Notes under the pieces: generated by a model | Databases searched by the model: none | What the model was told of the DNA's origin: nothing | What the model saw: only the letters and a program-made list of their open reading frames with translations | Position numbers and translations under genes: made by a program | In this document: positions 13,201 to 34,645 of the stretch, piece by piece | Numbering within the stretch: the first letter of the stretch is position 1 | How the letters are laid out: each line of letters begins with the position of its first letter | Origin: Catajapyx aquilonaris | Lineage: Eukaryota | NCBI GenBank assembly: GCA_000934665.2 | Contig: JYFJ02004015.1 | Location: 1-35,538 of the forward strand | Direction: 5' to 3' | DNA length: 35,538 nucleotides

Positions 13201-14421
13201 TGGGGGTTGCCAGCGACGACCAGGTACATTCACCTGGTCATCTCGTACGACCATTTTTAATTCAAACCTGAAAATTTTAGTGAATACCAATTAGGTCTAC
13301 ATTAAAATATCTTCCATCAATCTAAGTGATAAATTTAAACATAAACTTAAACTCAACTAGAAATTGCATTTAAAATTATAAACGTCGGGTTTTCGCCTGT
13401 AGCCCATAAAATACGTCCCAAAAATGAATGAAAAATGCAATCTGGCCGTGACCAAAGTGGCAGACCGTGACGTCACAGCTCGCGCACCCCGCTTATAATC
13501 CACCCCCTTCACCGCCCCCTTCTGATCTCCTGGCCCAGAAATCGGGTTGAAACTTCCCAAACTATCGCCTCCTCCTCCCCCCTTTACACACCAAGCCTAT
13601 TCTTCCCTAGGGTTCAACGCACCACCGCACTGTAGCGTAATTTGCAGCCTTCCTTCATTAGCGCAGACGAGGAAAATGCCTCTTCATCCCTAAGTGTCGG
13701 GAGGGACTGGCATAACCTCAGCCAGATATTAACCATCTAACTACGGGGCTGGAGATACCGCGAGGGGGGGACAAGGACATGTCCTAAAATGAAATTTTAT
13801 GCCTAGAAAACCCGGGCAAGGACGAGTCAAATTAACAAAAGGACGGGAAAACCACAGCGGCACGGTTTGTTTGGATTCGTATGAAAAGCTTGGTGATGAA
13901 CCTCCCAGGTTTATGGACAGAACCACGGAGGAAATTAAGCCTGCGGACACCCCCCAGAAAGCAATCCGGCGTTCCGGAAACACTTCATACAAACTGGGAA
14001 GCTGGAGGCTAATAGGTCGATTCTGCAAAGTGCCAAGTTGCACGTCAAAGTCACTACCTCGCGAAACATGTTACAGTCAGGCCAATACCTTGAGGCACTA
14101 TGTATTTGTATAGTTCATCCAAAAACATGTGGAATTTCCCGCCAAAATTACACGTGACATGTGGCTGTATAACACGGCAAAAAGATTGTCGCACTGTATC
14201 TGTGTGGTGTCCGCGACTTTTTGTTTGTCCTGCCGTCGCCGGGCTGATTGGGAGTAGACACCGTCACCCTGCAACGACCCTTGTGGCAGGAGGGTAAACA
14301 GAAAGTCGCGGACAGAGTGCGACAATCTTTTTGCGCGTTATAGTACTGTACGATATTGCACCTGCTCGGTTCTCGCTAGCACATGTCGCATTTGAACACC
14401 ATAAGTGACACTGATCCTCAC

Positions 14422-14806
14422 CAATGTTGACGATCTTGATCCCCTCGTCCTCCTCCAGAAACTTGAGCACCACCGACACATTCTCCAGCTTCTGCGACCT
14501 GAAGGTGGGCCTCTTGGTGTGCCTTGGCAGCCTCTTGCCGGACAACACCTCGACTAGTGAGACGAGCCTGAGCCCATCTGACAGGTCAGTCTCGAGGTTC
14601 CCGATGTGCTTGCTGACCGTCTTGAGATGCTCGTTGGCCCACCTGGTGAAGGTGTTCTGTTGGATCCTCTTCCACTGGGCGTCCTCTGCCAGGTCTCGCT
14701 CCGTGGCCACCATCTCCTCGTCGTCCCACTCCAGACTGGGCCTCCTGGCCTCCTCCGACCCCCGCCTAAGGCCCGCCTGCTTGCCTGCTGCATCATTGTT
14801 ATTCAT
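14422..14806 (-). CDS. FLN: Filamin (cheerio-like), first coding exon: N-terminal extension plus most of actin-binding CH1 domain
   Basis: Translation contains [27 protein letters not shown]...[21 protein letters not shown]...[16 protein letters not shown]...IKIVNI, the filamin CH1 signature. Ends AAC ATT G|GTGAGG (phase-1 donor at 14421). Probable acceptor ctcttgctctgtatttccag (AG at 14998-14997) makes 14807-14996 5' UTR. A second in-frame ATG at 14713 matches the usual arthropod start. Confidence 0.96.
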
Positions 14807-17800
14807 CGCTGGCTACTCCCCTGTAGGGCTATCCTCCTACCAGCAGAGGGCCCAACCAACCACACATACACACCCACACCTTGATCAGCAGCCTCACAAG
14901 CGCTCTCTATCTGCACGCCCGCACTCTCCACCACTTCCGATGCCTTTGCCGCACTTTTTTTCTTCTTTTTCACAGGTTCTCTGGCTCGATGCAGGCCTGG
15001 AAATACAGAGCAAGAGTTATATACGGGTGGTCGAACAGGTGCATCTGCGCGAGACTGGCGCATTGCATAGATACTGCAACATACATCACTTATGCAAGTA
15101 CAGAACCCTGCTGTTTACAAAGCACTGGGCACAAATCTATAATGCACCAGGTAATCTCCTGCATTGGATATTGATGTTTACAACCAGACGTTTTTCAAAT
15201 TAATTCAGTCTCCAGTGTACGTGAAATTCGACTTAAGCATAATGTTGCGGTACAATCCACAGCATATAACTTTTCAAAAAGTAGGCGGAGACCTCTGCCC
15301 CTCCAGTCTCCAAACACCCTAAGCAATCTGATTAACCCCGCCCTCTGCTCCACCAATCAGAATAGTGGGTACAGTGGGATCCAAAAGAAATCGTCCTATT
15401 TTGGAACCCTACCGTACATTGCTTAACCACAGAGGTCGCAATATTTAGGATATGCCTATTTTAAAAAAGAATGCAGTACGTAAGTCTGGAACTGTCCGTA
15501 GGCCTATATATAAAATCATTTCAAAGCCTACACACAATTATGCCCAATTCATGTTTTTCAAGCACAGTAATGAATACGTGCAATTAATTACTTTCGCTAA
15601 TTACACCACCTATTTATTGCTCTTTTGAATTAGAACTTGAAAGTCCCCCAGATTAGTGTGAACGCATGAACAATCAGTTGCTGCTTGGTCTGATTGGTCA
15701 TATTGTGCATTTGGAACAACAAAGCAGCGTTCACTCAGGGCAATTCCTATGCCGCAGAATACCTCCTGCATCCATTTGTCTTAAACTGAGCCGAACTGGC
15801 AAAAGCTTGAACCGCACAAAGTTCCTCCTAGCTCCTAACTATGACGATGATGCAGAGTCTGCTTTGAGAGAGTTCCCTGTGGGCACTTCCAACTAACAGA
15901 ATTCTGCTTCAGCATGTTTCGTGAGAGAGCCATGGGTGTTCAAATAGTTCCTGTGGGCCACGGAAAGACAAACCACTAAGCGCCTATAAACAATTACACA
16001 GACTCTCTTCTAGGTAGAGACTTGGTAGAGATGTGTTAGGCGGTTGTGCATGTAGCCAAATTTCCAAAATCTTTTTAATGTTCTATAATATATATGACAC
16101 TTTCATAAATGCGGTCCAACAATGTCTCCAAAAAATTATCTAGCCTTCCATGCAAAAATGTTCTTTGCTCCAGATCACATGGAATCAAAGGTACCAGACT
16201 CCCATAAACGTCTCCAATTCTCCCCGGATTGTGATTTGTAGGAGATATTTTCCTGGGGCGAGCCAAGATTTACTTGGTGATTCCAGACCCTTCAGACCCA
16301 CCTGAGTGTCTCGAGAGTTTCTAGAGAATAAATCTTCTCTCCAGCATTGGCACGATGGGCAGCCAACTAGTCGTCGACAACTCCAACTATACCACTTCAA
16401 CCCTAAAATATTACTGTTGTTCGCAAAAGTTTCCTTTTTATTATTGTCCCTGTCGTTTTCCTTGTCTGTATCTAGTACTTTTTACAAACTAATTTGCCGA
16501 TAGTAAATCAGTGTAATGAACATCGAGCTTGACTCCTACCCTCTGTGCATCTCATTAACATGCGCCCAGAAGCCGACCTTTTATGAACAACTCCTCCAAA
16601 GTTTCGGTAGTTAGTTAGCCCAAATTATAAGTAAGGCTACCGTATGCAAAGTGCACTGACGAAGTACCGGGGCAATAATCCAAGCCCTCGTTTATCATAC
16701 TAATTGTTTCCTACGCCACCTTGAGCTAATGTTCTTTTGTTTCCTTGGGTTCTTAGAAACCTTTTGTCAATGGAAGGACGTTTTCCGGAAACGAAGCTGG
16801 CCAATCAGGCAATCTCTCGATAATCGGATCGACTACGACTAAACCATGTTTGAGCACAATTTTATTCCATTAGCTACCAAGGAGGATCGATTCTAGGGTG
16901 AACAACAGGTTGGCAGAAATTTTTGCTGTATTTTTATTGCAGCAGCCTGTATAGCAGTGGAGGCAAAATTTGCAAAACGGCAAGGCTTGAATGGGATTCA
17001 TTAGCGACATACCGGCGTCTTGATGTCATCGTATTAATGAGTCATTGTTCGACTCGACCTCGAGAGTTTATAGTCGCTCACGTTACATCATTCGCAGAAT
17101 TAGAGGCCGATAGACGCAGCCTTGTCACGTACTAAATATCGAGCTAAAAATACTGCTTATTGAAATTTGGATGTAGACCGGAAAATATTTTAAAAAAAGG
17201 CGATATGAATGTTGCACAATGAGGTAATGCCCATACATATATATGCATATGTCATTCATTACAAAAAAAAATCCATTAATTCCAACCCTGCCAATGCACC
17301 TGTTGTTGCACCCAGCGCTACCTGTCTCTCCCATCCCAAACTTGCGCATCATGACACTCGTTCCAGTCCAGGAAACTTCAAAAAATATTTTTTTTAAATA
17401 TATTGTCATCCCCATGTCTTTTTTAGGCCAATTGGGTCCGGTTCCGACTCTCCCAGAAATCAGTCATCTGCAAAATTGAATCATCAAACGCCGGCTGGAT
17501 TTTGGGCAACTGGCCATTTTCCATTGGGGAAGACTTGAGAGATGCTACGTGTGACATCTGCATGCTGGTATCCCAACTATTCTGGAGTTTAAAGCGGGGG
17601 AGTCTGATGGTTCAAACAGGTTCAAACATAGGTCCTGATGATATTGCCAATGTGTCAATTTGCGCTTTATGGCCGTTGTTTGGACGCAAATTAATTAATC
17701 GGAGATTTCACATTAATTTGGGTTGATGCAACCGGCTTTAAACCAACATGGATAAGACGCCCTGTCAGAGACGGATGACTGCGGCCATTGATGCGTAGAG

Positions 17801-19329
17801 TCTGGCCTGCTTCCAATTGTGGGCGCTCGCATAGATATGGATCGACTTTTCCTTGAATTCGGAATAGAGTCGGGGAGCCATGCATCAATGTGATGGAATT
17901 CATGGCTGCCAGGAGAAGTGCAACACCTTTTTTTTTTTTCACTTGGGAAGCTTCAAAGTGAGGGATTACATAGCAACGCGATAACGGAAAAACTGCGCAT
18001 TTTCCGCTGATCGAAAGACGACTATCATAGCACGTAAAGGCCATATTGGACCAGCCTTTAAAAATAATGCATGTATAAAAATAACACGCGAACAACGTAT
18101 CGTACCAAATTGAAGAATGTTTGTCTGAAATAGGCTATGTATAGCCTACGTGATTTTCGAGCACACAGAATGTATACAAAAATATTTACGAAATAAGTAG
18201 CTAAATATGTCATGTATACTCTTTCATTTTTAGTAACTTAGAGTCAGTCTACTATGACACTGCCAAATTACAAATAACGATTTTTTATCTTCCGGAGCTG
18301 TTTCATGAAATATGCAGCGCATCCGCTGAGCTCCGCTAACTGTAAGAGATAAGTCTTTCTGGTGAAAATTTAATTTTGCCAGGGGGCCCAAAATCCGGCA
18401 GGATTCGTTTACAAAGCTGATTAACGGGCGTTAAGACGTCAGCGGACTCACTATAGTGAGTGTAGCTCTAAATGCGGTTAGATCAGTCATCACATAAACG
18501 AGACTGGTTGTTGCGACATACCGATGACACTCGACGATATACTTTTTTCTGGAGAAATTCTGTAGCAGACGGATATAATTAGCGACATATTTTGGGCTAA
18601 GATTGCAACATGAAGAGTAGAATCAGATGTCTTTTCTGCAGATCATTGTTGTTGTTATTAGGTCGTGGGTCTTGCACTCCCCATTTGGTCGGATGCAGCT
18701 TCAAAACATCTCTGTCTAGTCATGTTGCACGTGCCCACATGTAGCGAAAGAGATAACATCCACAACATCCTCTGGAGACTCTTCGATGGCGGTTTCTAAA
18801 CGTGTTCCAAATATAGAGAAGCTCAACTCCATACCTCACAGCAAGGGGGTTGCAGAATGCTGATGGGAACACACCCCCTCCCACCAGGTCATTTTTCACT
18901 TGCAAAAAATTGCGAGTAGTCATTTGCACTGGCGTAATGCAAACGTGTGTCAAGAGATGGTCCCACGTTTTCTGGACGAATCCGAGCAAAGTTCGAGCAA
19001 ACGTAGCGGAAATGGCGGGTCATCTCGATTCCAACTTGGAAAAAAGATGAGCCAAGGGAGAAAATCTTGGCTTCCGTCTTTCGGGCAGCCTCTCCCATGC
19101 CAACGTATGAAATCTGCTCAGCCGAGATGAGATTTCATCCTTTTCGATTTTGATTCTTTCCACGCTTTGATTTATACACTGCCATTACAGTGAGGATATC
19201 AGACTTTTGAGAGTACTATATGCTGGATTCACAAAAATTGGACCATTTGCATCAAATTTTCTGAATCGTGGCCCCTCATTGGACATAACCGCATTCAGGC
19301 CCATCAGTGAGTTTGATCTTAATCATTCG

Positions 19330-19330
<1 letters not shown>

Positions 19331-19408
<78 letters not shown>
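19331..19408. repeat. (AAT)26 microsatellite
   Basis: Perfect trinucleotide run. Confidence 0.98.
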
Positions 19409-19409
<1 letters not shown>

Positions 19410-19480
19410 TTGTAACTATACAACCTTTACTACGAGCATGTCATCGTCGTGACTTTAGCGCAAAAAGTGGCAAATATGTT

Positions 19481-19696
19481 CCTTATAAGGAAACCTCCCC
19501 AAAAAGTGGGGCAGTCATGCAGCCATGTACATTAAAGGAGTTGGCACTTTACACACACACAAAAAAAATGTAGGCTATCGACAGGGTCTATAAGTCGGGG
19601 GAGTAGGTGTCCTTGGAATAAAAATTTTTCAGCTTCGCACGTGTCGGTCATTGCTCAATGTTCGTCTCAATGAGGGGGAGGACTGACCATTTATGG
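19481..19696. promoter_or_regulatory. Pair of perfect CArG boxes (SRF sites)
   Basis: CCTTATAAGG at 19481-19490 and CCATTTATGG at 19687-19696; a TGACGTCA (CRE) follows at about 19720. Confidence 0.45.
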
Positions 19697-20928: not shown

Positions 20929-21055
20929 TGCCTGGTTGCACCAACAAAATTACCGGTCCGATAGCTCCTAATGGACAGATAGGTAGACCTTTTAACATGT
21001 GTTATCGGTCCGTTAGGAGCTATCGGACCGGTAACTTTGTTGGTGCAACCAGGCA
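20929..21055. mobile_element. PIF/Harbinger-type MITE (127 bp)
   Basis: 53-bp inverted arms with 3 mismatches (20929-20981 and 21003-21055), 21-bp spacer, TTA on both flanks as a 3-bp TSD. Confidence 0.8.
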
Positions 21056-21593
21056 TTACCATACAATATTGTGCTTATTTTTAATGACCATTAAAAAAAT
21101 TCCTGGAAACTGTCCTGCAAGTGTCAGGCTATTGCTATAACATTTGAGCAATGGGTCATAATACTAGCTGTACTGGAATGGAAACAGAAATTTCGTTCTG
21201 GCCATCATGGACATAGCTTTCTGTCATTCTCAGACCCACAACTACAGAATAAGTTGTGAAACCTGTTTATAGCAATGTCATCAATTCTGCAAAGGTTTCC
21301 AGCATAAAACAGGTTTCAGTTATGTAGAGCAGATAGGCGACACTGTAAGTAAAAGAAATCCTCTGCTGGGGCCTAAAAGAATAAAGGATATCGCATAGTA
21401 TGCCTACTGGAGCAAACAAGATCACAGAACAGGAGAACATGTATGAAACTCTGAAAAAGTGTCTGACAAAATATTACAGCAATGGAAATACTCTATAGCG
21501 TAAAGAAGCATGTTTTCCTCTACTTGCAAGTTCCACTATTCATATTATCGCTCTTGATATTATTAATTCAGCCCAAGTTCCTGGAAAATATTA

Positions 21594-22547
21594 AGGTGAG
21601 TAGGGGCAAGTGTGACCCTGTTTTACATAGGTTGACTTTGGGTGAAGATTGTGCCGCTCAGGAAGCTGTATAAATGCTGAACGTTCAACGACATCCAGAG
21701 TAACTAATTCTCTTTTAGTGATCACAGAATCAATAGGGTACAGTTTTGCAATTGTCTGAAAATGATTTATTCCCGAAACTGTGACATGGATTTGGCACTT
21801 GCCCCGATGTGGGGTAAGTGCAACTACTGGCCTTATCTTTGAAGAGAGCATCGGGTGAGGGAAATGAGGTAAGTGGCTACTAGGGTAGCAGTATACCTTT
21901 CTAGAGTTCTTTTCCGAATCAAAATACCTTTTCCCAGTGTCAAATTATCAACTTTCAATGAAAATCTGCGTAAGAGGAGCCAAGAGAAGAAAAAGTCCCC
22001 AAGTTACATAGTATGAGTTGACATGTGAATAAAATAAGTTAGTATGTCTCAAAAGCACTTCTTCAGTAAACAGAATGCCACACTCACACGTATAGCACAC
22101 ATTTAAACCTGAAAAATCCAGTCCAAATAGTAATGCTCCACCTCTGCGGTCTTCCTAGGTCGCACTTGCCCCAGTGTCACATTGTCATGGGGCAACTGCG
22201 ACCTAGGCAACTAAAGGTGATGTCATAATCTTATCGCTAATTACACAAGGTCATAGAAAATGCTTCATAACTATGCAAAAATAGAACACCCAGCATGTTG
22301 AAGTGCACCTACACAAAATATCTTCCGAAGTTCGTCGATCTTCTTCTGAAGGTGAGATGTGAAGGTCGCGAGTTCCGTCTCCGTCATAGCCACACAATGC
22401 CAGTAATGCGGGAAAATGCTTTTGCCCTATGTTGACCGAGGTCAAGACAATCATATGGGGGTGTCACGAAAAGTGCTCCCATACCGTGGCATTATTTTTC
22501 CCCCGAAGTCGCACTTACCTCGTTTCGGCACTTGCCCCGACTCACCT
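21594..22547. mobile_element. Non-autonomous TA-targeting (pogo/Tc1-mariner-like) DNA transposon, ~950 bp
   Basis: TA|AGGTGAGTAGGGGCAAGTG ... CACTTGCCCCGACTCACCT|TA; the GGGGCAAGTG motif recurs internally as inverted pairs near 21795-21820 and 22160-22205. Confidence 0.8.
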
Positions 22548-23117
22548 TACGACATCATGTCACTGCAGTGGGACATTGAGAATCAGGTGCAATAATTACA
22601 CAATTATTGGATACTTGTAGTAGTCAAAATGACTTTATTTAGAAAAAGGTTCATTTCCAAATATTAATAAGTTGTGGCATACACCAAGCACATCTCTGAC
22701 GGCCCAAGCAATAACCCTGTATCTTCGAAAATCACGTACATGGAGATAAGTGCACCATTGCACTCCTCTGTGCAAGCCACACCTGTTGGTACAATGCCCG
22801 TAGCTGTTGGAGCAACTCTTACAAAGTTTTGACCACATTTAAATCCTGCACTTCCAGCTACAGTAATGGAAACAAAAAACTTCAAACGCAAATATCTTGA
22901 AATGACAAAAAGGCGAGATACAGGGTTTTGACTTGGGCTGTCAGATCTCAGTGACACCATACAAGTTCAATCCAAAAGTTACACAGACCACACTCACAAA
23001 CTGAGCATGATGATTCAGATATTTTCCAGTCCAACTTTCATGTGTAAAAATGTTTTCACACCATTTGAAAGAAACAAACTGAATAATGAAATGTCTCTTC
23101 AATCACAGGTACTTGCT

Positions 23118-23267
23118 CTAGTCAACTTCTTCAAGACAAATGTATCTATGATCATCAGGTTTGTACTTGGCAATTCCACATCGAAGCAGAAACTCCACAT
23201 GCGGTGTCCACATGTCTCTTGTTATCTCAACATAGAGATCTCCTCTAGTCTTATTTCGCACCAATTC
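23118..23267 (-). CDS. CENPK: Centromere protein K, last coding exon (conserved C-terminal head)
   Basis: Acceptor attttgcag|; ELVRNKTRGDLYVEITRDMWTPHVEFLLRCGIAKYKPDDHRYICLEEVD* matches the recalled CENP-K C-terminus DPYVKI...FWPPYVELLLRNGIALRHPEDPTRIRL. Candidate AATAAA (minus) at 22639-22634. Confidence 0.9.
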   Translation of the reverse strand, partial: ELVRNKTRGDLYVEITRDMWTPHVEFLLRCGIAKYKPDDHRYICLEEVD

Positions 23268-23364
23268 CTGCAAAATATTTGCAAGTATATTTTACATACC
23301 GACATATGCTCTCTGGTCCTGCAGCAATGGAGGAGCTGATCAAAGGAGAGCGAGCAGTACTTAC

Positions 23365-23433
23365 GGAAAGGATATCACTGACAGTCAAGTTGTACCCTGA
23401 CTTTGGAGGAAAGGCCAGCTCCACAAACTTGTG
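23365..23433 (-). CDS. CENPK: Centromere protein K, coding exon 3
   Basis: Acceptor attttattttcag|, 23 codons HKFVELAFPPKSGYNLTVSDILS, donor |GTAAGT, phase 0 at both ends. FVELAFPP resembles vertebrate CENP-K FLEDHFPLP (recalled). Confidence 0.85.
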
Positions 23434-23618
23434 CTGAAAATAAAATTCTTGCATTTTCACACACTTAATGTTACATACAATTACACAGCACCTTTTGTCA
23501 TTCTAAATTCCCAATAACAGAGCCAATTCCTGACCAGTCAAGAGAGTACAGCAGCCCACGTCTGTTTGCAAACATAATTTTCATACTTCCAGTTTCAAAT
23601 GACCCCAGAAGGGAAACC

Positions 23619-23836
23619 TGAAATAATTATTCTAATTTTATGGCATTGGTGTGTGACAATTTTTTGTCACATTCACTAATTGAAGTTTGTACAATATTAC
23701 TAGTACCATGTAGCAACCAATCATAATGGCGCATTATAATGGGATGACTCGTCAAGTTCATTGTCAGTTTTAGTGAACATCTCACTCATTAAATTGGGCA
23801 CCACCTACCAATGCCATAAAAATTAAAATTATTTCA
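23619..23836. mobile_element. Degenerate MITE / foldback element
   Basis: Imperfect ~30-bp inverted termini tgaaataatt...ttttatggcattggt / accaatgccataaaa...aattatttca, plus an internal inverted match (ttcactaa / ttagtgaa). Confidence 0.55.
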
Positions 23837-23911
23837 TGTTCTAGGAACAAGGTTCTCTGCAGTTCTCTGAAGCAAAATTCCCCTTGTCAATTTTCTCAAC
23901 TTCAGCTCCAT

Positions 23912-24352
23912 TAGATTAGCCCTTCCTATCCACGGGGATTGGCTACAGGACCTCCCGCAGATACCAAAATCTGCGGATGCTAAAGTCCTCTGTATAAAAG
24001 GGTGGAGTACTTTCATTAAACCAACCCACATCTTCCTGCATACTTTAAATCTTTGCTAAATTACTTATAATACACCGCAAATGCTGTGTGACCAGGGATG
24101 GAAAAAGAACCGCTTCTTCGGTTCTTTTTCCATCCCTGTGTGTGACAAGTTATCATCTTCTATGGTTTAGGGAATTATAGCACGAAAAACGAACATGTGT
24201 GTACATGTTCAGGGCAGGGTTAGGCCTCAGTGTTTGGCAAATTCAAGTTTTGCTCTATTGGAACCTTCGGATTTCATTTTTCTTCACATATTTTCTACGA
24301 GCAGCTGTTATAATCTGCAGATGGATAAGCCATGGACACAGAGAGCCAACTG
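23912..24352 (+). mobile_element. Tigger (TcMar/pogo) non-autonomous element resembling MER2/MER2B
   Basis: Degenerate TIRs (gcccttcctatccacgggg ... ccatggacacagagagccaactg) and internal blocks colinear with recalled MER2/MER2B: ggggattggctacaggacc, gataccaaaatc, atactttaaatc, ttacttataatac, gtttagggaat, tgtacatgttcag, gcaaattcaagttttgct. Confidence 0.8.
24093..24138. mobile_element. 46-bp hAT (Ac-like) miniature element
   Basis: Perfect 20-bp TIRs CAGGGATGGAAAAAGAACCG with a 6-bp spacer; perfect 8-bp TSD TGTGTGAC at 24085-24092 and 24139-24146. Confidence 0.9.
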
Positions 24353-24357
24353 AACAA

Positions 24358-24500
24358 TGCCAATTCTCATGACCGTAATCATGTCAAAGAAAATCGTGTT
24401 GGTCAGATCACCAAGTAAACACAAGCAGTTGGAGGTTAACATAAAAACCATAAAAACATGTTCCTCAGCATTAAAGTGGGTGCTGTCATGAGAATTGGCA
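24358..24500. mobile_element. MITE with 16-bp perfect inverted termini
   Basis: TGCCAATTCTCATGAC at 24358-24373 and its reverse complement at 24485-24500; no clear TSD. Confidence 0.6.
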
Positions 24501-24558
24501 CGATATAATCTTTATTAGGAGCCAAAATCACCAGAATCAACTATCATCATTTTGTCCT

Positions 24559-24826
24559 TTGGGCGACACGGTGGCGAAGTGGTTAGCGCCTCAGCCTTCC
24601 ACCTCTAAGGTCCTGAGTTCGATCCCCGGATCGGACAGAGGATACTTATGTGGATAGAGTTTCGATGGGTTCTCTCCGTGTTCGCGTGGGTTTTCTCGGG
24701 GTTCTCCCGTTTCCCCCCACTATCAAAATCGATCACAGCGCAGGCAATGATTAAAGTCGGTCAATTAAAAGATGATCCCCAAAAAGCCCAAGGAGGCTTA
24801 TCACAGGGTGTCCCATTATTATCATA
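24559..24826 (+). mobile_element. tRNA-derived SINE with V-type conserved central domain
   Basis: A-box TGGCGAAGTGG 24572-24582; B-box GAGTTCGATCC 24615-24625; central ttctctccgtgttcgcgtgggttttctcggggttctcccgtttccccccac; 3' hairpin AAGCC-caagga-GGCTT; short ATT tail; TSD ATTTTGTCCT at 24549-24558 and 24827-24836. Confidence 0.88.
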
Positions 24827-25568
24827 ATTTTGTCCTAGAAAATTCCATAAACCCTGGTCTGAGAAGTGTGCACCACATTGTAAAATAACTTCACATTCAT
24901 TATGAAATGGAGAAACTTAAGAAAAACCGCAATGCATAGCACAGAATTTAGCAAAATGTGTTTACGTATGTAAGGTTTGTCAGTAGCTAAAGATCTGTTC
25001 CTTCACGCTGACCTGGAGAGCAGCACATTGCAGTAGCTGGAGACAAGAGTAGTGCCAGGCGACTTGTCAGGTTTTCACCTTGAGTGTACCATCCCAAGTG
25101 CCGCGGACATTTGAAACGCAGACAAAGATCAGGATCGGTGTAGGAAAGGAAGAGGGCAATAGGCAATGTGACCATGCGACTATGCCACCGTTATCAAAAT
25201 GAGCTTTGGATTGAAACAGTATTAAGGTGGTGAATAGAAGGTCAGACAGCATGTGAGGTTGCTCATCACTGCCTGCTTTTTCGACACCTAGGATGGGGTG
25301 AAAGTGCAACATTTCTGCTTGTCTCAATCCGTGGCATTGTGCTGCTTTGCAGGGCCTCTTCTCAATTACAGGAGGTACATACAAATCAAAAGTAATGGAA
25401 TTAGCGTGGGCATTTTAAAATATGTCGACTGGGAACTTGATGCTTATGCTATGTTTGTTACTGAAACTAACATGATGGGAATCAGCAATTTTTTGTCTGA
25501 CTTTTGAGGCCACGCGGTTGGTTACAGATACAAATCTGTGCCAGTGTCATACTCCCTCCAACACTCAC

Positions 25569-25867
25569 CAACTTATCCTTGAGGACCTTGAACATGGCGT
25601 GCACACGCCTCTCCTTTGCCACCAACTCCGCCACCACCTCCTCCTCACTCTTCTCAGTCTGTGCCTCCCGTCTCTTGGCCACGGCTTCCGCAATGTCCCT
25701 CTTCCTGGACTTCTCCCACCTAATGTTCTCATCCAGGTCCCTGATCTTGGCCTTCAACCCCTTGTCCTTCGCGGTGTAGTACTGCAGCATCCCTTGCGTC
25801 CCGTCCAGTGCTTCCTTCAGCTTGTGCTTGTTCCACACGTACAGCAGCTCCGGATCATTAGGCAAGC
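25569..25867 (-). CDS. CENPK: Centromere protein K, coding exon 2 (coiled coil)
   Basis: Acceptor ctctttcgtgggacag|GC in phase 1; GLPNDPELLYVWNKHKLKEAL...MFKVLKDKL; donor TTG|GTGAGT (phase 0). Confidence 0.85.
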
Positions 25868-25926
25868 CTGTCCCACGAAAGAGAGTCATCATCCAGGGTG
25901 AAGGACATGACAAGGGGGGTATTTAC

Positions 25927-26140
25927 CTTGAGCCTGTCCGGTTGTGCTCATCTCCAGCTGGCTCCTGGCGTCCTGCAGCCTCTCGTTGAGGACGGCTCTC
26001 TCGATGTCTTCTACTTGGTCGTCGTCGTCCACCGAAGCAGGGTTGTTGAGCCTGGCGTTCTCCAGCTGCCTCAACAGCTCCTTCACCTCATCAGTCGCCG
26101 TGGACAGGGCCGAGTCCAGAGGGGTTGCTTCCGCCGCCAT
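25927..26140 (-). CDS. CENPK: Centromere protein K, coding exon 1
   Basis: ATG at 26140; helical/coiled-coil-like MAAEATPLDS...GQAQ; donor CAA G|GTAAAT (phase 1); 59-bp intron 25868-25926. Confidence 0.82.
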
Positions 26141-26754
26141 AGCCTCTTATTCACCTCAGCAGGTTTGAATCGAACTCAACGGACATAAAGACAAGGAATG
26201 CCTGCCTGCCGCCAAAGGCCAAACTCAGGCCTCCTTGTCCTGGTCAGAAACACTAAGCTTTGTAATATTGGACACCACGAGGCGTTGCATGACATGCCAT
26301 GTTGTTGTATGGCACTGTTGTTAGCGCCACATGTAGGCTGATGTGTGCAATGTGTTGTGAACTTTTGTCTGTTTATGGCAGTAATTCGCTTTCCTTCCGA
26401 AGGCGGCGCTGGCTACTTCCGCCAAATTGGAGCGCACAGTTGAAAATGGTTTGAAAGATGTGCAGCGTGGACTAGAGTGTAGGCAATTATTGCCGAAGGT
26501 GGTGCAATAAATATTTTTCAAATAGGCTACAATAATAAGAAATAGAGGCGAAATCTGCATCAAACACTTACCTAGGCTATACTACCATCATGATCATCAG
26601 CTTGGTTTTCATGTCAAATAATGTCAGCAGGACGGGTACGTTTGTCATGGATTTTTGTGCGATAATTTTGGCGTGTGTGCAGCCTATTTTCATAAAATTA
26701 TAGATGGGAGCAGCTTGTTTCAGGCAGCATATACGGTCCAAAAGACAGTAGATT

Positions 26755-26820
26755 GGGACCCAAGATGGCCGCCATTTCGCGCGCTGGAAGACGATTGGGT
26801 AGGTCTAGCCAATCAGCGCT
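26755..26820 (-). promoter_or_regulatory. Probable CENP-K promoter (YY1-type motif plus CCAAT box)
   Basis: CAAGATGGCCGCCATT at 26761-26776 (overlapping YY1-like motifs on both strands) and AGCCAATCAG with CCAAT at 26809-26813. A strong donor TAG|GTAAGT at 26571 and an acceptor near 26240 suggest a 5' UTR intron. Confidence 0.5.
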
Positions 26821-26821
26821 T

Positions 26822-26977
26822 CGGTACTCAGGTGTACACCTGCGAGTGGTACTCCCAGGTACTCCTCAGGTACCACACTCTTTATTACTCCTTGGTACTC
26901 CTGTGAGTGGTACTCCCAGGTACCTCACTCTGTATTTACTCCTTGGTACTCCTTGAATTTGGTACTCCAGTGTACAC
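26822..26977. repeat. GGTACTC-rich imperfect tandem repeat
   Basis: About nine GGTAC cores; two larger units starting GAGTGGTACTCCCAGGTAC near 26844 and 26905; bracketed by ggtactc..gtgtacac direct repeats. Confidence 0.85.
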
Positions 26978-27119
26978 TTTTCAGTCGAGTGATTGCTCCC
27001 TTAGATAGTCATAATGACCTGGGCATTGAGCATTGCAGGCACAGCAGACTAACCACTGTGTCTCAGTTGGTGTGTATGTAAGAAGATAGATACTTCACTA
27101 TTTCTCTTAGAAAAGTGTA

Positions 27120-28724: not shown

Positions 28725-29105
28725 CTAGGAAACGGTGCACCCGGACTTCTCCTGAGGATTTCCGTCCGCCTTCTCCACCTCCATGACAACTGCATTGAAG
28801 ACGTCTGCCACAGACTCCCTCTCTTTGGCGGAGGCCTCCACAAAGGCAGCCTTCCACTGCTCCGCTAGCTTCCTTCCCTCCTCCCTGCTCACCCGCCTCT
28901 CAGTGCGGAGGTCCGTCTTGTTCCCAACCAGGACCAGAGGGAGATTCACCTTGCCAGTCATGTCCACGAGTTTGTCGTAGATCACCTTCACCACGTCAAA
29001 TGATTTGTCATCTACAATGGAGTACACCAAGACGTAGCCATGAATGTCCATCGAGTACTGGGTCGGAAATATCGAGTACTCATCCTGGCCTGCGGTGTCC
29101 ACCAC
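28725..29105 (-). CDS. Rheb: Rheb GTPase, coding exon 2 (183 aa in total)
   Basis: Acceptor cttcttatttcag|GTG; VVDTAGQDEYSIFP, NKTD and EASAK motifs; CAAX box CTVS*. Candidate AATAAA (minus) at 27937-27932. Confidence 0.97.
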   Translation of the reverse strand: MVDTAGQDEYSIFPTQYSMDIHGYVLVYSIVDDKSFDVVKVIYDKLVDMTGKVNLPLVLVGNKTDLRTERRVSREEGRKLAEQWKAAFVEASAKERESVADVFNAVVMEVEKADGNPQEKSGCTVS

Positions 29106-30338
29106 CTGAAATAAGAAGTTGCTTTTAGCTCTAGATCATGTTTACAACTAGTGATTAAATTATCAAGTGGTTACACACAATAACAACAGAGATAAATAAT
29201 TAACAATTTTCATGAAATACTTCTGAGGTAATGTACAAGTTGCAGAATGTCATTATCAAGCATCATACGGGAAGGTTATGATGACAGAGATTGTATATTA
29301 TTTGTGTGCTATTGTGTATTATTTGCGGCGAGTCCCCATTCTGCAGCTGGTATTGTGATAAGTAATTTTGCAGGTGCAAAGTAAGCTCGTGTGTCATTGT
29401 TTACCACTACTGTAGAGCAATTATGTGATATCATACAATGAGCTGGTCTGGCCTAGATTGTTACTAATGCTCAATATGTTTTATTGATCCCATGTTATTG
29501 GATAATAACATGCAAAATTATTCTGAAACCATGCAGATTTTTAAGAAATGTTCAAATTTTGATTAGTTCATGCCAGTTCAGGTAAGGACAATAATCATAA
29601 AATTGCTGCAATGAAATACTGCAAGTGCACATAAGGGTAATGCCTTGGTGATAAAAACTGTGTTCTTACTTAACACTCGCATTGCATAACAGGCTCAGCA
29701 TAACCTTGAATATCTTATCACCTTCTTCTCTGTCTAATCAAGCACGTATGTTTGAAGCAACTGTTTGTTATAAGGCATCAGCATATATGCATTTTAATGC
29801 TTCAGAGCAAGTCAGGTCCAGCTTGCAAACATTAAAATGGCAAGGGGTTGTTTTGCAACAAAACCACAACATTCCAATACCGCAGATTAGATACGACCAC
29901 AACAGTCTGTCGTTCTTCAAAGGGCATCTTGATGTGATAAGGGTTTTTTTTTCTCAATAAAACCCAATCCCATGTCATGCTCAATCCTCATGATATGCTC
30001 AAGATTAGCCGACACGATCCAATCTGAAAATGTGCCTGAAAACTAGGTTACTATGGCAGAAATTTGCACTTGTTTTTCCCCCTTATCATTACCATAATTA
30101 TATTTGGTACATGTTGAAACGATTCAAAAAATGCAAAGCGCCAGGCACAGATTGTAATATTTACTGCTCTGCTGTAAAGGTTTAGCATATTTGTTTAAAA
30201 TGTCCAGGCAGGTCCTCACATTTCTTGGCACTTTGGCATCCGAATAATCAACGCAAGGCAAACGCGAAATTCACATTACTACGGTAAAGATAATGGGAGC
30301 AATTCGATGGAATTTTTGGGAAAGACGGACAGTGAATA

Positions 30339-31019: not shown

Positions 31020-31083
31020 GGCGCGAAAGTGCGCGTTATTTTTGTTGTGAATGGGTGTGTGTGCGTGGGAGGCAGTGAGTGAC

Positions 31084-31254
31084 CTTGATCTCGTACTCCT
31101 GTCCCCTGATCTTGACTGCCTTGGAGAAGGTGTTCTCGATGGTGGGCTCGTACTGGTCCACAAACTGACCCTGGACGAACTGGATGGTCAGGGAGGACTT
31201 GCCCACGGACCTGAAACCCATGACCGCGATCTTGCGCTGCTTTGGAGGAGCCAT
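31084..31254 (-). CDS. Rheb: Rheb GTPase, coding exon 1
   Basis: MAPPKQRKIAVMGFRSVGKSSLTIQFVQGQFVDQYEPTIENTF...GQEYEIK has the Rheb-specific Arg-Ser in the P-loop and the Y-x-PTIEN effector loop. Phase-0 donor AAG|GTCACT. Confidence 0.96.
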
Positions 31255-31560
31255 CCCGCCTCTCTCTTGGGGTGTGTCACTTCCTCCTTCTTTCTCCTCC
31301 TCGGAACAAGCTAGGGCGTCTCAAGATGGCCTTAGAGAAGAGGCGAAAGGGATGCGACGGAGCTGCTGCGGACTGGTCAGGAGAGATTCGCTGGTGGTGT
31401 TGGCATCGACGCCATCTTGCCCGATTTGCACGGTTGGGACCACTGCCGCCGGAAGGGTTGGCGGCGCTGGGATAGAAGCCAGCCTCAAGCCCCAAGAGGC
31501 ATCTGGCGGACGGGGACGACACCACTGGAAAATGACCGCGGGAGATCCGAACTCACAAGA
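31255..31560 (-). promoter_or_regulatory. GC/CpG-rich Rheb 5' UTR / promoter region
   Basis: Abrupt GC- and CpG-rich stretch upstream of the ATG, with YY1-like CAAGATGGC motifs at 31322-31330 (+) and 31419-31410 (-). Confidence 0.45.
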
Positions 31561-31599: not shown

Positions 31600-33899
31600 G
31601 AAAAAAGTCCAGGTCCATTTTTTCTGTATTTTTTTTCCATCAGCAGATATAATTATTCCCCTGGTAGGAAACAAATTCAACAGCGTCCAGTCCCACTCAA
31701 AACACGCTCTTGTCTCACCTTCTCCTCTTATTATTTCTTTTTTTTTTTTGACAAAGAGAACACAATAGAATACTGAAAAACTGTGGAAAGGAAATATAAG
31801 AGACGGTACACCTTTGGTTCCTCCAAAAATTCGAACACAAAATTTTTAAGAAGAAGCGAGAGAGGAAAAAAAAAAAATCTTTTTCGTGTTTGTTGTTTTT
31901 TTCTTCACTTATTTTTTTCTTCTTCTTCTTCTTTTCGTTTTTTCAACTGCATAGTGGTGGATTATAAAATTTTCTTTTTGGATTTGTCTGGTTTTGGTGA
32001 AAGCTGAGGGGGGTTACGGGGGGAGTGGAAGTTAGACAATAATAATAAGTTACGCACCTCCTGAAACAAAGGTACTTCCTGTTCAACAGTGACTGTGGTT
32101 TATTCTTGGGGGGGTAGTTAGTTAATAGTAGTTTGTGTAGTGTTGATGAAATGGGGAACTGATTGAAGGCAAGTGCAGCTTGTGGTGTGCAAACCGCAAG
32201 GCTTCAAAAAATACTTAATGATCCTGTAGTTTAATAAAGTCATATCCCTGTTTCGTCTGTTGTGTTGTGTACAGTAAAATAAATTAGGAATAGACTATTA
32301 GTCTACTACTGTAGGGCATTATTATTATTATTATTTTCTTTTTTATTGTTTATTTTTATTTTATGGGATTATTTATGTTGTCGGGCGCGACGGTTTCGTT
32401 AGCTATTGCCTGAGAAGCCGGTGTGTTTATGGTAGTCGCCAACGCTTTGTGTGACACGCTGGCGGTTTGAGACCTGTATGAATTAATTAGTGGATGGCTG
32501 ATCAAGACACTTGCAGTGAGGTACCGTTGTCAAATAACGGCGTTCGATAAGTAAAATAAAAATATTCTACGTTCTGCTGCCGTGTTCCATTCAGCATACG
32601 AAATGTTCCTTGAGATATACAGACACTTGACTAGGTTATTCTTCTTTTTTTCATCTTCTCTTTTTTTATACTGAGGTATGGTGGGGGCAGGGAGGGGGGT
32701 AAGGGAGAGAGAGATTTTGGTCTTGGATAGAGGTGTGTACTGCCAGTTATCTACAAAGAGGACCATAATTTTTTTAAACCACGTTATCTGCATCATGACT
32801 CGGATTTCTTTTTTTGGTTCATTTTTCTCTTCTTTTTTCAAAGGGGGGGGGGAGGATGACACCCTACCAAATTTTTTACACACATCTGTACTAAAACATC
32901 CACTGATTATCGACTTGAATAATCTAGACATCAAATTTGCCTGTACTTTTTTGGGCAAGGGTGTTTTTTTAAGGGTTGAGAAAGGGTCATTTTTGGAAAA
33001 GGATTACAAAGGTCCAGGATTATTTTTTGGATATGGAACAGGATTGGGGGTAAGGATAGGGGCAGATATATTATATATATATTTTTCGTCGCAACTAACG
33101 CCTTTTTGGGGGAGGGGGATAGGGTTTGGGGGTAAATTGGGGGAGAAGCCACGAGTACTAAATTTGCGCTTGTCTATCGCAGCTCTGCACTCTCACTTTT
33201 TCTATACACCCACTGTTCTCTGCCCTAGCTTTACATTTTACAGCCCGTACAAACATTAGCCACTCTCACTAATATCGGTACTCGTGCCTGGGAGTAAGGG
33301 TTGGGATGAGGGTATGGGTGGGGGTAGAAGTATTTTGCAGGGTGGGGAGAGTCATCCATCTGTTGGGATGCGCCTAACATCATTATTTTTTATCCATTTT
33401 CTCTNGTTAAGGAGTTTTTTCGAGGGAGATAGTTTGGGGGGTGGGGAGGGAATATACCAGTATACGTTTTGGTGAACAAATGTCAGTCCGCTATACAACA
33501 CTGGCTACTGTGCTTATTTTTTGTGGGTTTTTTTGAACCTCTCCTTCTTTCTCGAGTAAACCTTACTGTTTGGAAACCGCTCTCTCTTTTGCTTTTTCCT
33601 TCTCTCACTCATTTGAACATCTCGCGCCCCAAAAACTGTGCGTCGTCTTATCCATTTCTCCAAAAAATTGTCCACCGCTTTGCAAAAAATCCAGACCCCA
33701 AAACTTCGAGTCAAAAAAAAATTTCTCCTCATGCTTGTAACTAGGGGGAGGTTTTTGCAAGCACACAACCGGGTTAAGCAACAAATCCCACCCAAATTTG
33801 AGCGTCCATCACTTTCTTTTTGGCTTGGCTCCTCCCCCGTCTTTGTGTGTAGTTATGTATATATAATATTAGATCACAATGGTGTTGTCGTAGGGTAGT
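31600..33899 (-). other. Probable FoxP 3' UTR (3' end uncertain)
   Basis: A- and C-run-rich low-complexity sequence on the minus strand after the stop; AATAAA candidates near 32342-32354 and 32099-32104. One ambiguous base (n) at 33405. Confidence 0.55.
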
Positions 33900-34302
33900 C
33901 TATCCTTCGACGATGTGGTCGCAGCGTCCTTCAGTGCCGACGCTGAGGTCCTCTGCCATCTCCTCCTGGTCGCAGTCCTCAGCCGGAGAATGTCCTCCTC
34001 TGACACTGTTCACCTGCTGGGTGTTGGTGGTGCTTCCTCCTCCTCCTCCTCCTCCCCCTCCTCCTCCTCCTTCTGGAGGGAGGGGAGGGGGAGGTCCCAT
34101 GGAATGAGGGGGCATCTCCTCGTCCTGGGTGCTGCTGGGGGGTGGTACGGTGGGTCCGTTGCTGCCGGAGACGGCTCCTCCGCCGTTGTGCTCCAGCATC
34201 TCCTGCTTGATCAGGTGGACCAAACCGCCGTTCTCAGTCGGATGGGGGACCAGGCCGCTAGGCTCTCGCTTCACCACGACCATGCTGGGGTCCACCGGCG
34301 CT
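33900..34302 (-). CDS. FoxP: FoxP transcription factor, last coding exon
   Basis: Acceptor ggcaccttcacag|A; ...VVVKREP...IKQE...poly-Gly...HSPAEDCDQEEMAEDLS... parallels the FOXP tail VKEEP...HSPE...EE..EDL. Confidence 0.8.
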
Positions 34303-34645
34303 CTGTGAAGGTGCCAGAACAGCAGGTCACAATGGTGCCATCGAAGCAGGTGCGCGCGCATTGGTTCGGGTCGTATTTGGGGTACTGCGCAGGCGAATAC
34401 GCAAGTGGGTGGAGCGAATGCGCAAAGAGACGGAGCCATTGCGCCGTACCTCAAATTGCGACTTGAATGCTCGAATGGAACGAATTTATTCAAATGGAAA
34501 TATTTATTCTACATCTTGATACGATTGAACTACTCGCGACAGGGAATGGGAAGAGTTCCCGACCCCTATACCCGTAAGTTGCTTATATCCTGGAATTGGT
34601 GTCGCGCTCCCTTCCCATCCCTTAAACCAAAATCCCGATAACAAC

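Follow-up and report, generated by a model that had tools for sequence, protein, structure and literature searches.

Non-coding transposon DNA that can still be aligned between a non-vertebrate animal and a mammal cannot have been passed down by vertical inheritance, and a stretch of intronic DNA at positions 23912-24352 of an animal contig raises the question of whether such a case is at hand. An earlier note, made from the letters of the same DNA, had read this stretch as a transposon of the human MER2/MER2B type and had proposed it as a candidate for horizontal transfer. We followed up this proposal within the window, by which we mean the whole stretch of 35,538 nucleotides that was analysed, and considered what the locus itself, its neighbourhood, sequence collections and the literature say about the origin of the stretch.

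MER2 and MER2B are human non-autonomous relatives of Tigger2, and their known host range is the placental mammals. A copy in a non-vertebrate host would represent a related family, not MER2 itself. In the part of PMC5753468 that gives a Repbase listing, both names are entered as human repeats of the Mariner/Tc1 class. Tigger elements as a whole are spread far more broadly: sections of Diaby et al. (2022, PMC9219625) report them in 180 invertebrate and 145 vertebrate species, describe transfers between vertebrates and invertebrates in which Eutheria and arthropods are included, and give cross-phylum transfer as the explanation of the patchy distribution of these elements.

Host and gene context of the locus

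The window is animal DNA carrying several genes on the minus strand, one of which informs on the host. Two minus-strand exons of a Rheb gene (31039-31320 and 28728-29135) match the Ras family of Pfam with E-values of 2.5e-11 and 1.9e-32, respectively, and by a count made by eye the exon at 28728-29135 shares 77 of 130 aligned columns (~59%) with residues 54-183 of human Rheb. Vertebrate Rheb proteins are more than 90% identical to one another, and the genes that encode them contain many exons. With an identity to human Rheb of only ~59% and residues 54-183 all within one exon, the host is a non-vertebrate.

The stretch in question measures 441 bases and, as read over 23600-24700, lies in intronic sequence of a CENP-K-like gene (Table 1). 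To the right of the AG acceptor TTTTGCAG, in the sense of the gene, follows directly the last CENP-K-like exon (23267-23118), and the ORF that contains it (23121-23291, minus strand) matches the C-terminal part of the CENP-K profile of Pfam, PF11802 (E 3.5e-8). The match covers positions 206-259 of the 263 in the profile, and its 33.8 bits exceed the cut-off of 27.2. When this last exon was used as a query against 1.84 billion representative proteins, six proteins were found at an E-value of 0.001 or better; a word-index search with the same exon found none. Two of the six proteins (P0003 and P0005) match the exon through their own C-terminal ends, with a tblastn E-value of 6.8e-10 for P0003. 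Residues 107-148 of P0005 also align weakly to 25865-25740 (tblastn E 0.010), which is the correct order relative to its C-terminal match and falls within the upstream coiled-coil exon. The phases agree, with phase 0 both at the end of this upstream exon (25867-25569) and at the start of the last one. Searched for an identity of its own, the ORF at 25.5-25.9 kb gave a best E-value of 0.18 in the PDB, nothing below E 0.02 in Pfam, no hit among the longer proteins of the word-index search, and a best atlas score of 0.79, which is under the useful range.

The splice signals, together with this weak homology, suggest that positions 23912-24352 lie in a 2,301-nt intron, the last of a CENP-K-like gene, in which an additional small exon may also be present. 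The earlier note had placed the element in an intron of such a gene, and the PF11802 match, the splice signals, the agreement in phase and the ordered tblastn match support that placement.

Table 1 Features of the locus and of the gene around it (positions in the window)
Feature	Start	End	Strand	Evidence and remarks
Last coding exon, CENP-K-like gene	23118	23267	-	AG acceptor 23269-23268; TAG stop 23120-23118; Pfam PF11802
Upstream coiled-coil exon, probably of the same CENP-K-like gene	25569	25867	-	AG acceptor 25869-25868; GTGAGT donor 25568-25563
Probable intron holding the element (element antisense to the gene)	23268	25568	-	2,301 nt, GT..AG; canonical signals and matching phase
Candidate Tigger2/MER2-like fossil, left part	23912	24092	+	starts TAG, preceded by AT; presumed likeness to MER2
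Target-site duplication TGTGTGAC, left copy	24085	24092	.	exact direct repeat with 24139-24146
Nested hAT-type mini-element	24093	24138	.	two 20-nt inverted arms starting CAGGGATGG, 6 nt between them
Target-site duplication TGTGTGAC, right copy	24139	24146	.	exact direct repeat with 24085-24092
Candidate Tigger2/MER2-like fossil, right part	24147	24352	+	ends CCAACTG, followed by AA

A nested hAT-type insertion

An insertion that duplicated 8 bp of its target sits inside the stretch. An 8-bp target duplication together with short perfect inverted ends starting with CAG is the signature of hAT-type insertion, and the 46-bp palindrome at 24093-24138 carries it in full: the arms pair at 20 of 20 positions (100% complementary; pair I1), and the duplication of TGTGTGAC on either side is exact. 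The hAT insertion that the earlier note had seen inside the candidate element is therefore real. The pattern of the arms has two sites in the window, both of them the arms themselves, where dinucleotide shuffles give an expectation of 0, and neither the window nor the viral_contigs collection holds a further copy that the arm pattern would reveal. In its 8-bp duplication, its short perfect terminal inverted repeats and its first triplet CAG, the insert resembles the MITEs of the hAT superfamily, from which it differs in being extremely short. Its first bases, CAGGGATG, presumably resemble the end of the maize Ac element. Given its perfect arms and duplication, the insert must be young relative to the DNA around it, and the same perfection implies that this surrounding DNA belonged to a genome in which hAT elements were recently active.

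Ends, flanks and copies of the outer stretch

The outer stretch is far less well defined than its insert. All of the sequence strings quoted in the earlier note were found within 23912-24352 on direct reading; the description of the element as bounded by terminal inverted repeats, in contrast, was not confirmed, since its ends do not pair above chance and TA/TA flanks are absent. Among the four inverted-repeat pairs in 23500-24800, none joins one end of the stretch to the other. When 23895-23952 was aligned locally to the reverse-complemented 24290-24365, the score was 15; shuffles gave a mean of 15.2, and 253 of 500 did at least as well. Counted by eye, ~15 of the outer 24 positions of the two ends agree, which is what is expected from two arms each a quarter decayed and equally from chance. 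The flanks are AT (23910-23911) and AA (24353-24354), so that the TA duplication is absent; its loss could be explained by the decay of an old copy.

The ends of the stretch, TAG...CTG, are one transition away from CAG...CTG, the form that Table S1 of PMC9219625 gives for most Tigger elements. When both ends were compared with five Tigger terminal motifs printed in that table, the scores were at chance level: 181 of 2000 shuffles, and 158 of 3000 28-mers drawn at random from the window, did as well as the best of them, that of the 5' end against the Hovi motif.

No second copy of the stretch was found in the 35.5-kb window, in which blastn returned the stretch itself and the palindrome and, beyond these, matches at E 0.039 or worse; likewise, no part of 23300-25100 is repeated elsewhere in the window at E 1e-3. 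Rfam and tRNA searches over the window gave 0 matches each. A transposase domain was sought with Pfam in stop-to-stop ORFs and was found neither in 126 of the 128 ORFs of at least 38 aa in 19.5-28.6 kb, with two ORFs over the element's left part set aside, nor in any of the 135 ORFs of at least 62 aa in the rest of the window. Taken alone, the sequence of 23912-24352 gives no demonstration that it is a transposon.

Proposed likeness to MER2 and search for relatives

What would set the stretch apart is a presumed likeness to MER2, and the transfer proposed in the earlier note depends on such a likeness across the non-coding interior. We assume that in both subterminal regions the blocks of 23912-24352 run in the order of the MER2 consensus, at ~70-75% identity. 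The presumed likeness would include a comparable length without the nested insert and ends of the CAG...CTG type, and the stretch differs from MER2/MER2B in its non-vertebrate host, in the missing TA duplication and in ends that do not pair above chance. The earlier note proposes the same likeness; our agreement with it is a lead rather than independent evidence.

Relatives of the stretch were sought in sequence collections that are microbial and contain little animal DNA, so that blanks in them carry little weight. A 26-base pattern made of two interior blocks had 0 matches in viral_contigs and 0 in metagenome_contigs, and a second two-block interior pattern had 0 in viral_contigs. A 19-base pattern near the left end matched 10 loci in genome_contigs, 1 in viral_contigs and 11 in metagenome_contigs. 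All 22 loci were rejected as relatives, because local blastn matched the pattern only, as chance would produce; in one of them (L017) the match runs a little further, and this locus, GC-rich coding DNA of bacterial type, was likewise discarded.

The literature was searched as well. Three short strings of the element yielded nothing concerning transposons among the matches listed, and no report of MER2-like non-coding sequence in an invertebrate was found in the running text of open-access papers. Neither Tigger nor MER2 is named in PMC13465657. Within the supplement of PMC9219625, as far as its coding sequences and terminal motifs go, six word-starts of a Tigger2-type end matched a single row, that of an unrelated frog element, so that no Tigger2-type element was met among the rows consulted.

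Origin of the stretch

We consider 23912-24352 to be a decayed, non-autonomous Tigger2/MER2-like element of the pogo/Tigger group that was later struck by a young hAT mini-element, a reading to which we give about even confidence. Such an element would have been inserted by a Tigger-type transposase acting in trans, and point mutation would then have erased the duplicated TA and left the ends largely unpaired. The last and much later step, in which the 46-bp hAT-type mini-element entered the stretch and duplicated 8 bp of its target, is shown directly by the palindrome and the exact repeats. What is left would be an old, immobile, non-coding remnant with no present function.

It is unlikely, in our judgment, that the stretch is plain intron sequence whose resemblance to MER2 is accidental or over-read, and in which only the 46-bp hAT mini-element was ever mobile. 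All of the tests internal to the sequence speak for this view, as pairing of the ends, TA duplication, second copy, Tigger motifs and relatives each came out negative. Yet an old copy is expected to have lost both the pairing of its ends and a duplication of 2 bp, and the presumed collinear likeness over ~390 bases would, if real, be beyond chance. We likewise regard as rather improbable that the stretch is the relic of a Tigger lineage that invertebrates have long carried, which would share with Tigger2/MER2 only the family-conserved transposase-binding sequence near the ends; no transfer involving mammals would then be needed, and the likeness in the interior would be weaker than presumed. 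Ends of the type CAGTC..C.C...TTATCCG.GG are indeed widespread outside mammals: Table S1 of PMC9219625 gives them for Tigger elements of arthropods and echinoderms (Homalodisca, Cryptotermes and Ophiothrix). In a section of PMC7325037, Tigger2 forms its own clade, distinct from Tigger1, within a large array of pogo-like elements. With the invertebrate Tigger elements the stretch shares a non-vertebrate animal host and ends one base from the usual form, but it is without a coding part, and against the printed invertebrate motifs its ends scored at chance. The presumed likeness, moreover, would span the whole interior in the same order and not just the ends.

That the stretch is mammalian DNA, for example human, brought into the assembly by contamination or by a chimeric join, is very improbable. 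The stretch is present as a single copy in the window, and its presumed distance from the MER2 consensus is about that of a real human copy. In addition, four sequencing runs (X1-X4, from one sample of one study) contain 0.85-0.86 of the sampled words of 21000-27000, and these runs may be the source of the assembly itself, in which case they lend no independent support to the locus; a run from a second study (X5) contains 0.20 of those words, and none of the five is counted here as support. Against a foreign origin stands the perfect hAT-type insertion with its perfect 8-bp duplication inside the stretch. In the human lineage hAT activity ended tens of millions of years ago, and for that reason so intact an insert is not expected in human DNA. 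CENP-K-like exons lie 645 and 1,217 bases off either end of the stretch, joined by one GT..AG intron, and the sole N of the window is at 33405. The base composition points the same way: the observed/expected ratio of CpG is 0.51 in the stretch and also 0.51 over 19.0-28.6 kb (0.71 in the whole window), whereas in bulk mammalian DNA it is ~0.2-0.25. The argument in the earlier note that an intronic position and a nested hAT insertion oppose simple human contamination is thus upheld, and to it we add the non-vertebrate host.

Implications of a possible Tigger2-like element in a non-vertebrate host

Were the likeness to MER2 confirmed, the Tigger2 lineage would probably have moved horizontally among distant animals, as has been reported for other Tigger lineages; a direct exchange with mammals would not be necessary for such a spread. 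A closer link is possible but doubtful: the host may carry a family nearly identical to eutherian MER2 in its interior, in which case the short element, or a Tigger2 parent with the same ends, would have crossed between early placental mammals and some lineage of invertebrates. If such a family were present, this genome, or those of related species, would be a pointer to the reservoir outside mammals that has long been sought for the Tigger2 lineage.

SPIN and OC1, reportedly described by Pace and colleagues in 2008 and by Tang and colleagues in 2015, are said to be DNA transposons that crossed phyla between invertebrates and tetrapods, and the evidence for them is said to consist of many copies, consensus sequences and tests against the distances of host genes. 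The event proposed here is of the same type, in that non-coding transposon DNA would be alignable between animal genomes that otherwise are not. It differs in that 23912-24352 is one decayed copy with a presumed likeness to MER2.

A confirmed likeness would add another cross-phylum transfer, for one of the oldest and most abundant families of human DNA transposons, and may hint at the origin of the MER2/Tigger2 family. Transfers of Tigger elements across the divide between vertebrates and invertebrates have already been published, so that this one would contribute a further case, and possibly a donor lineage, but no new principle. Should the likeness fail, the locus would be an ordinary intron with one tiny hAT element.

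Neighbouring repeat-like units and other features of the window

Several further units with the look of repeats lie close to the stretch. A MITE-like unit of ~226 bp (23615-23840) is found 70 bases to the left of the candidate element; its outer ~40 bases form imperfect inverted repeats (pair I2, 20 nt, 90%; pair I4, 14 nt, 93%), and no other copy of it is present in the window. Five bases past the right end of the candidate element begins a unit of 143 bp (24358-24500) with perfect 16-nt inverted ends, TGCCAATTCTCATGAC (pair I3), for which neither a clear target duplication nor another copy in the window was found. The segment 24560-24640 resembles the head of a tRNA-derived SINE, with box A-like and box B-like motifs; ARAGORN calls no tRNA in it, and Rfam returned nothing.

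Farther away, the Rheb-like GTPase gene on the minus strand apparently consists of two coding exons only (28728-29135 and 31039-31320); the structure of the vertebrate RHEB gene is far more complex. On the same strand, 33903-34508 holds an open frame of 202 aa in a GC-rich region, with a glycine run, proline-rich parts and no Pfam family, which may be an exon of a further gene. A long AAT-type microsatellite at 19289-19570 (plus strand) reads as a run of asparagine in one frame and produced spurious weak Pfam matches. Lastly, a calponin-homology exon at 14267-14812 on the minus strand (Pfam CH, E 1.2e-13), filamin-like by eye, lies in the kilobase with the highest GC content of the window (0.543).
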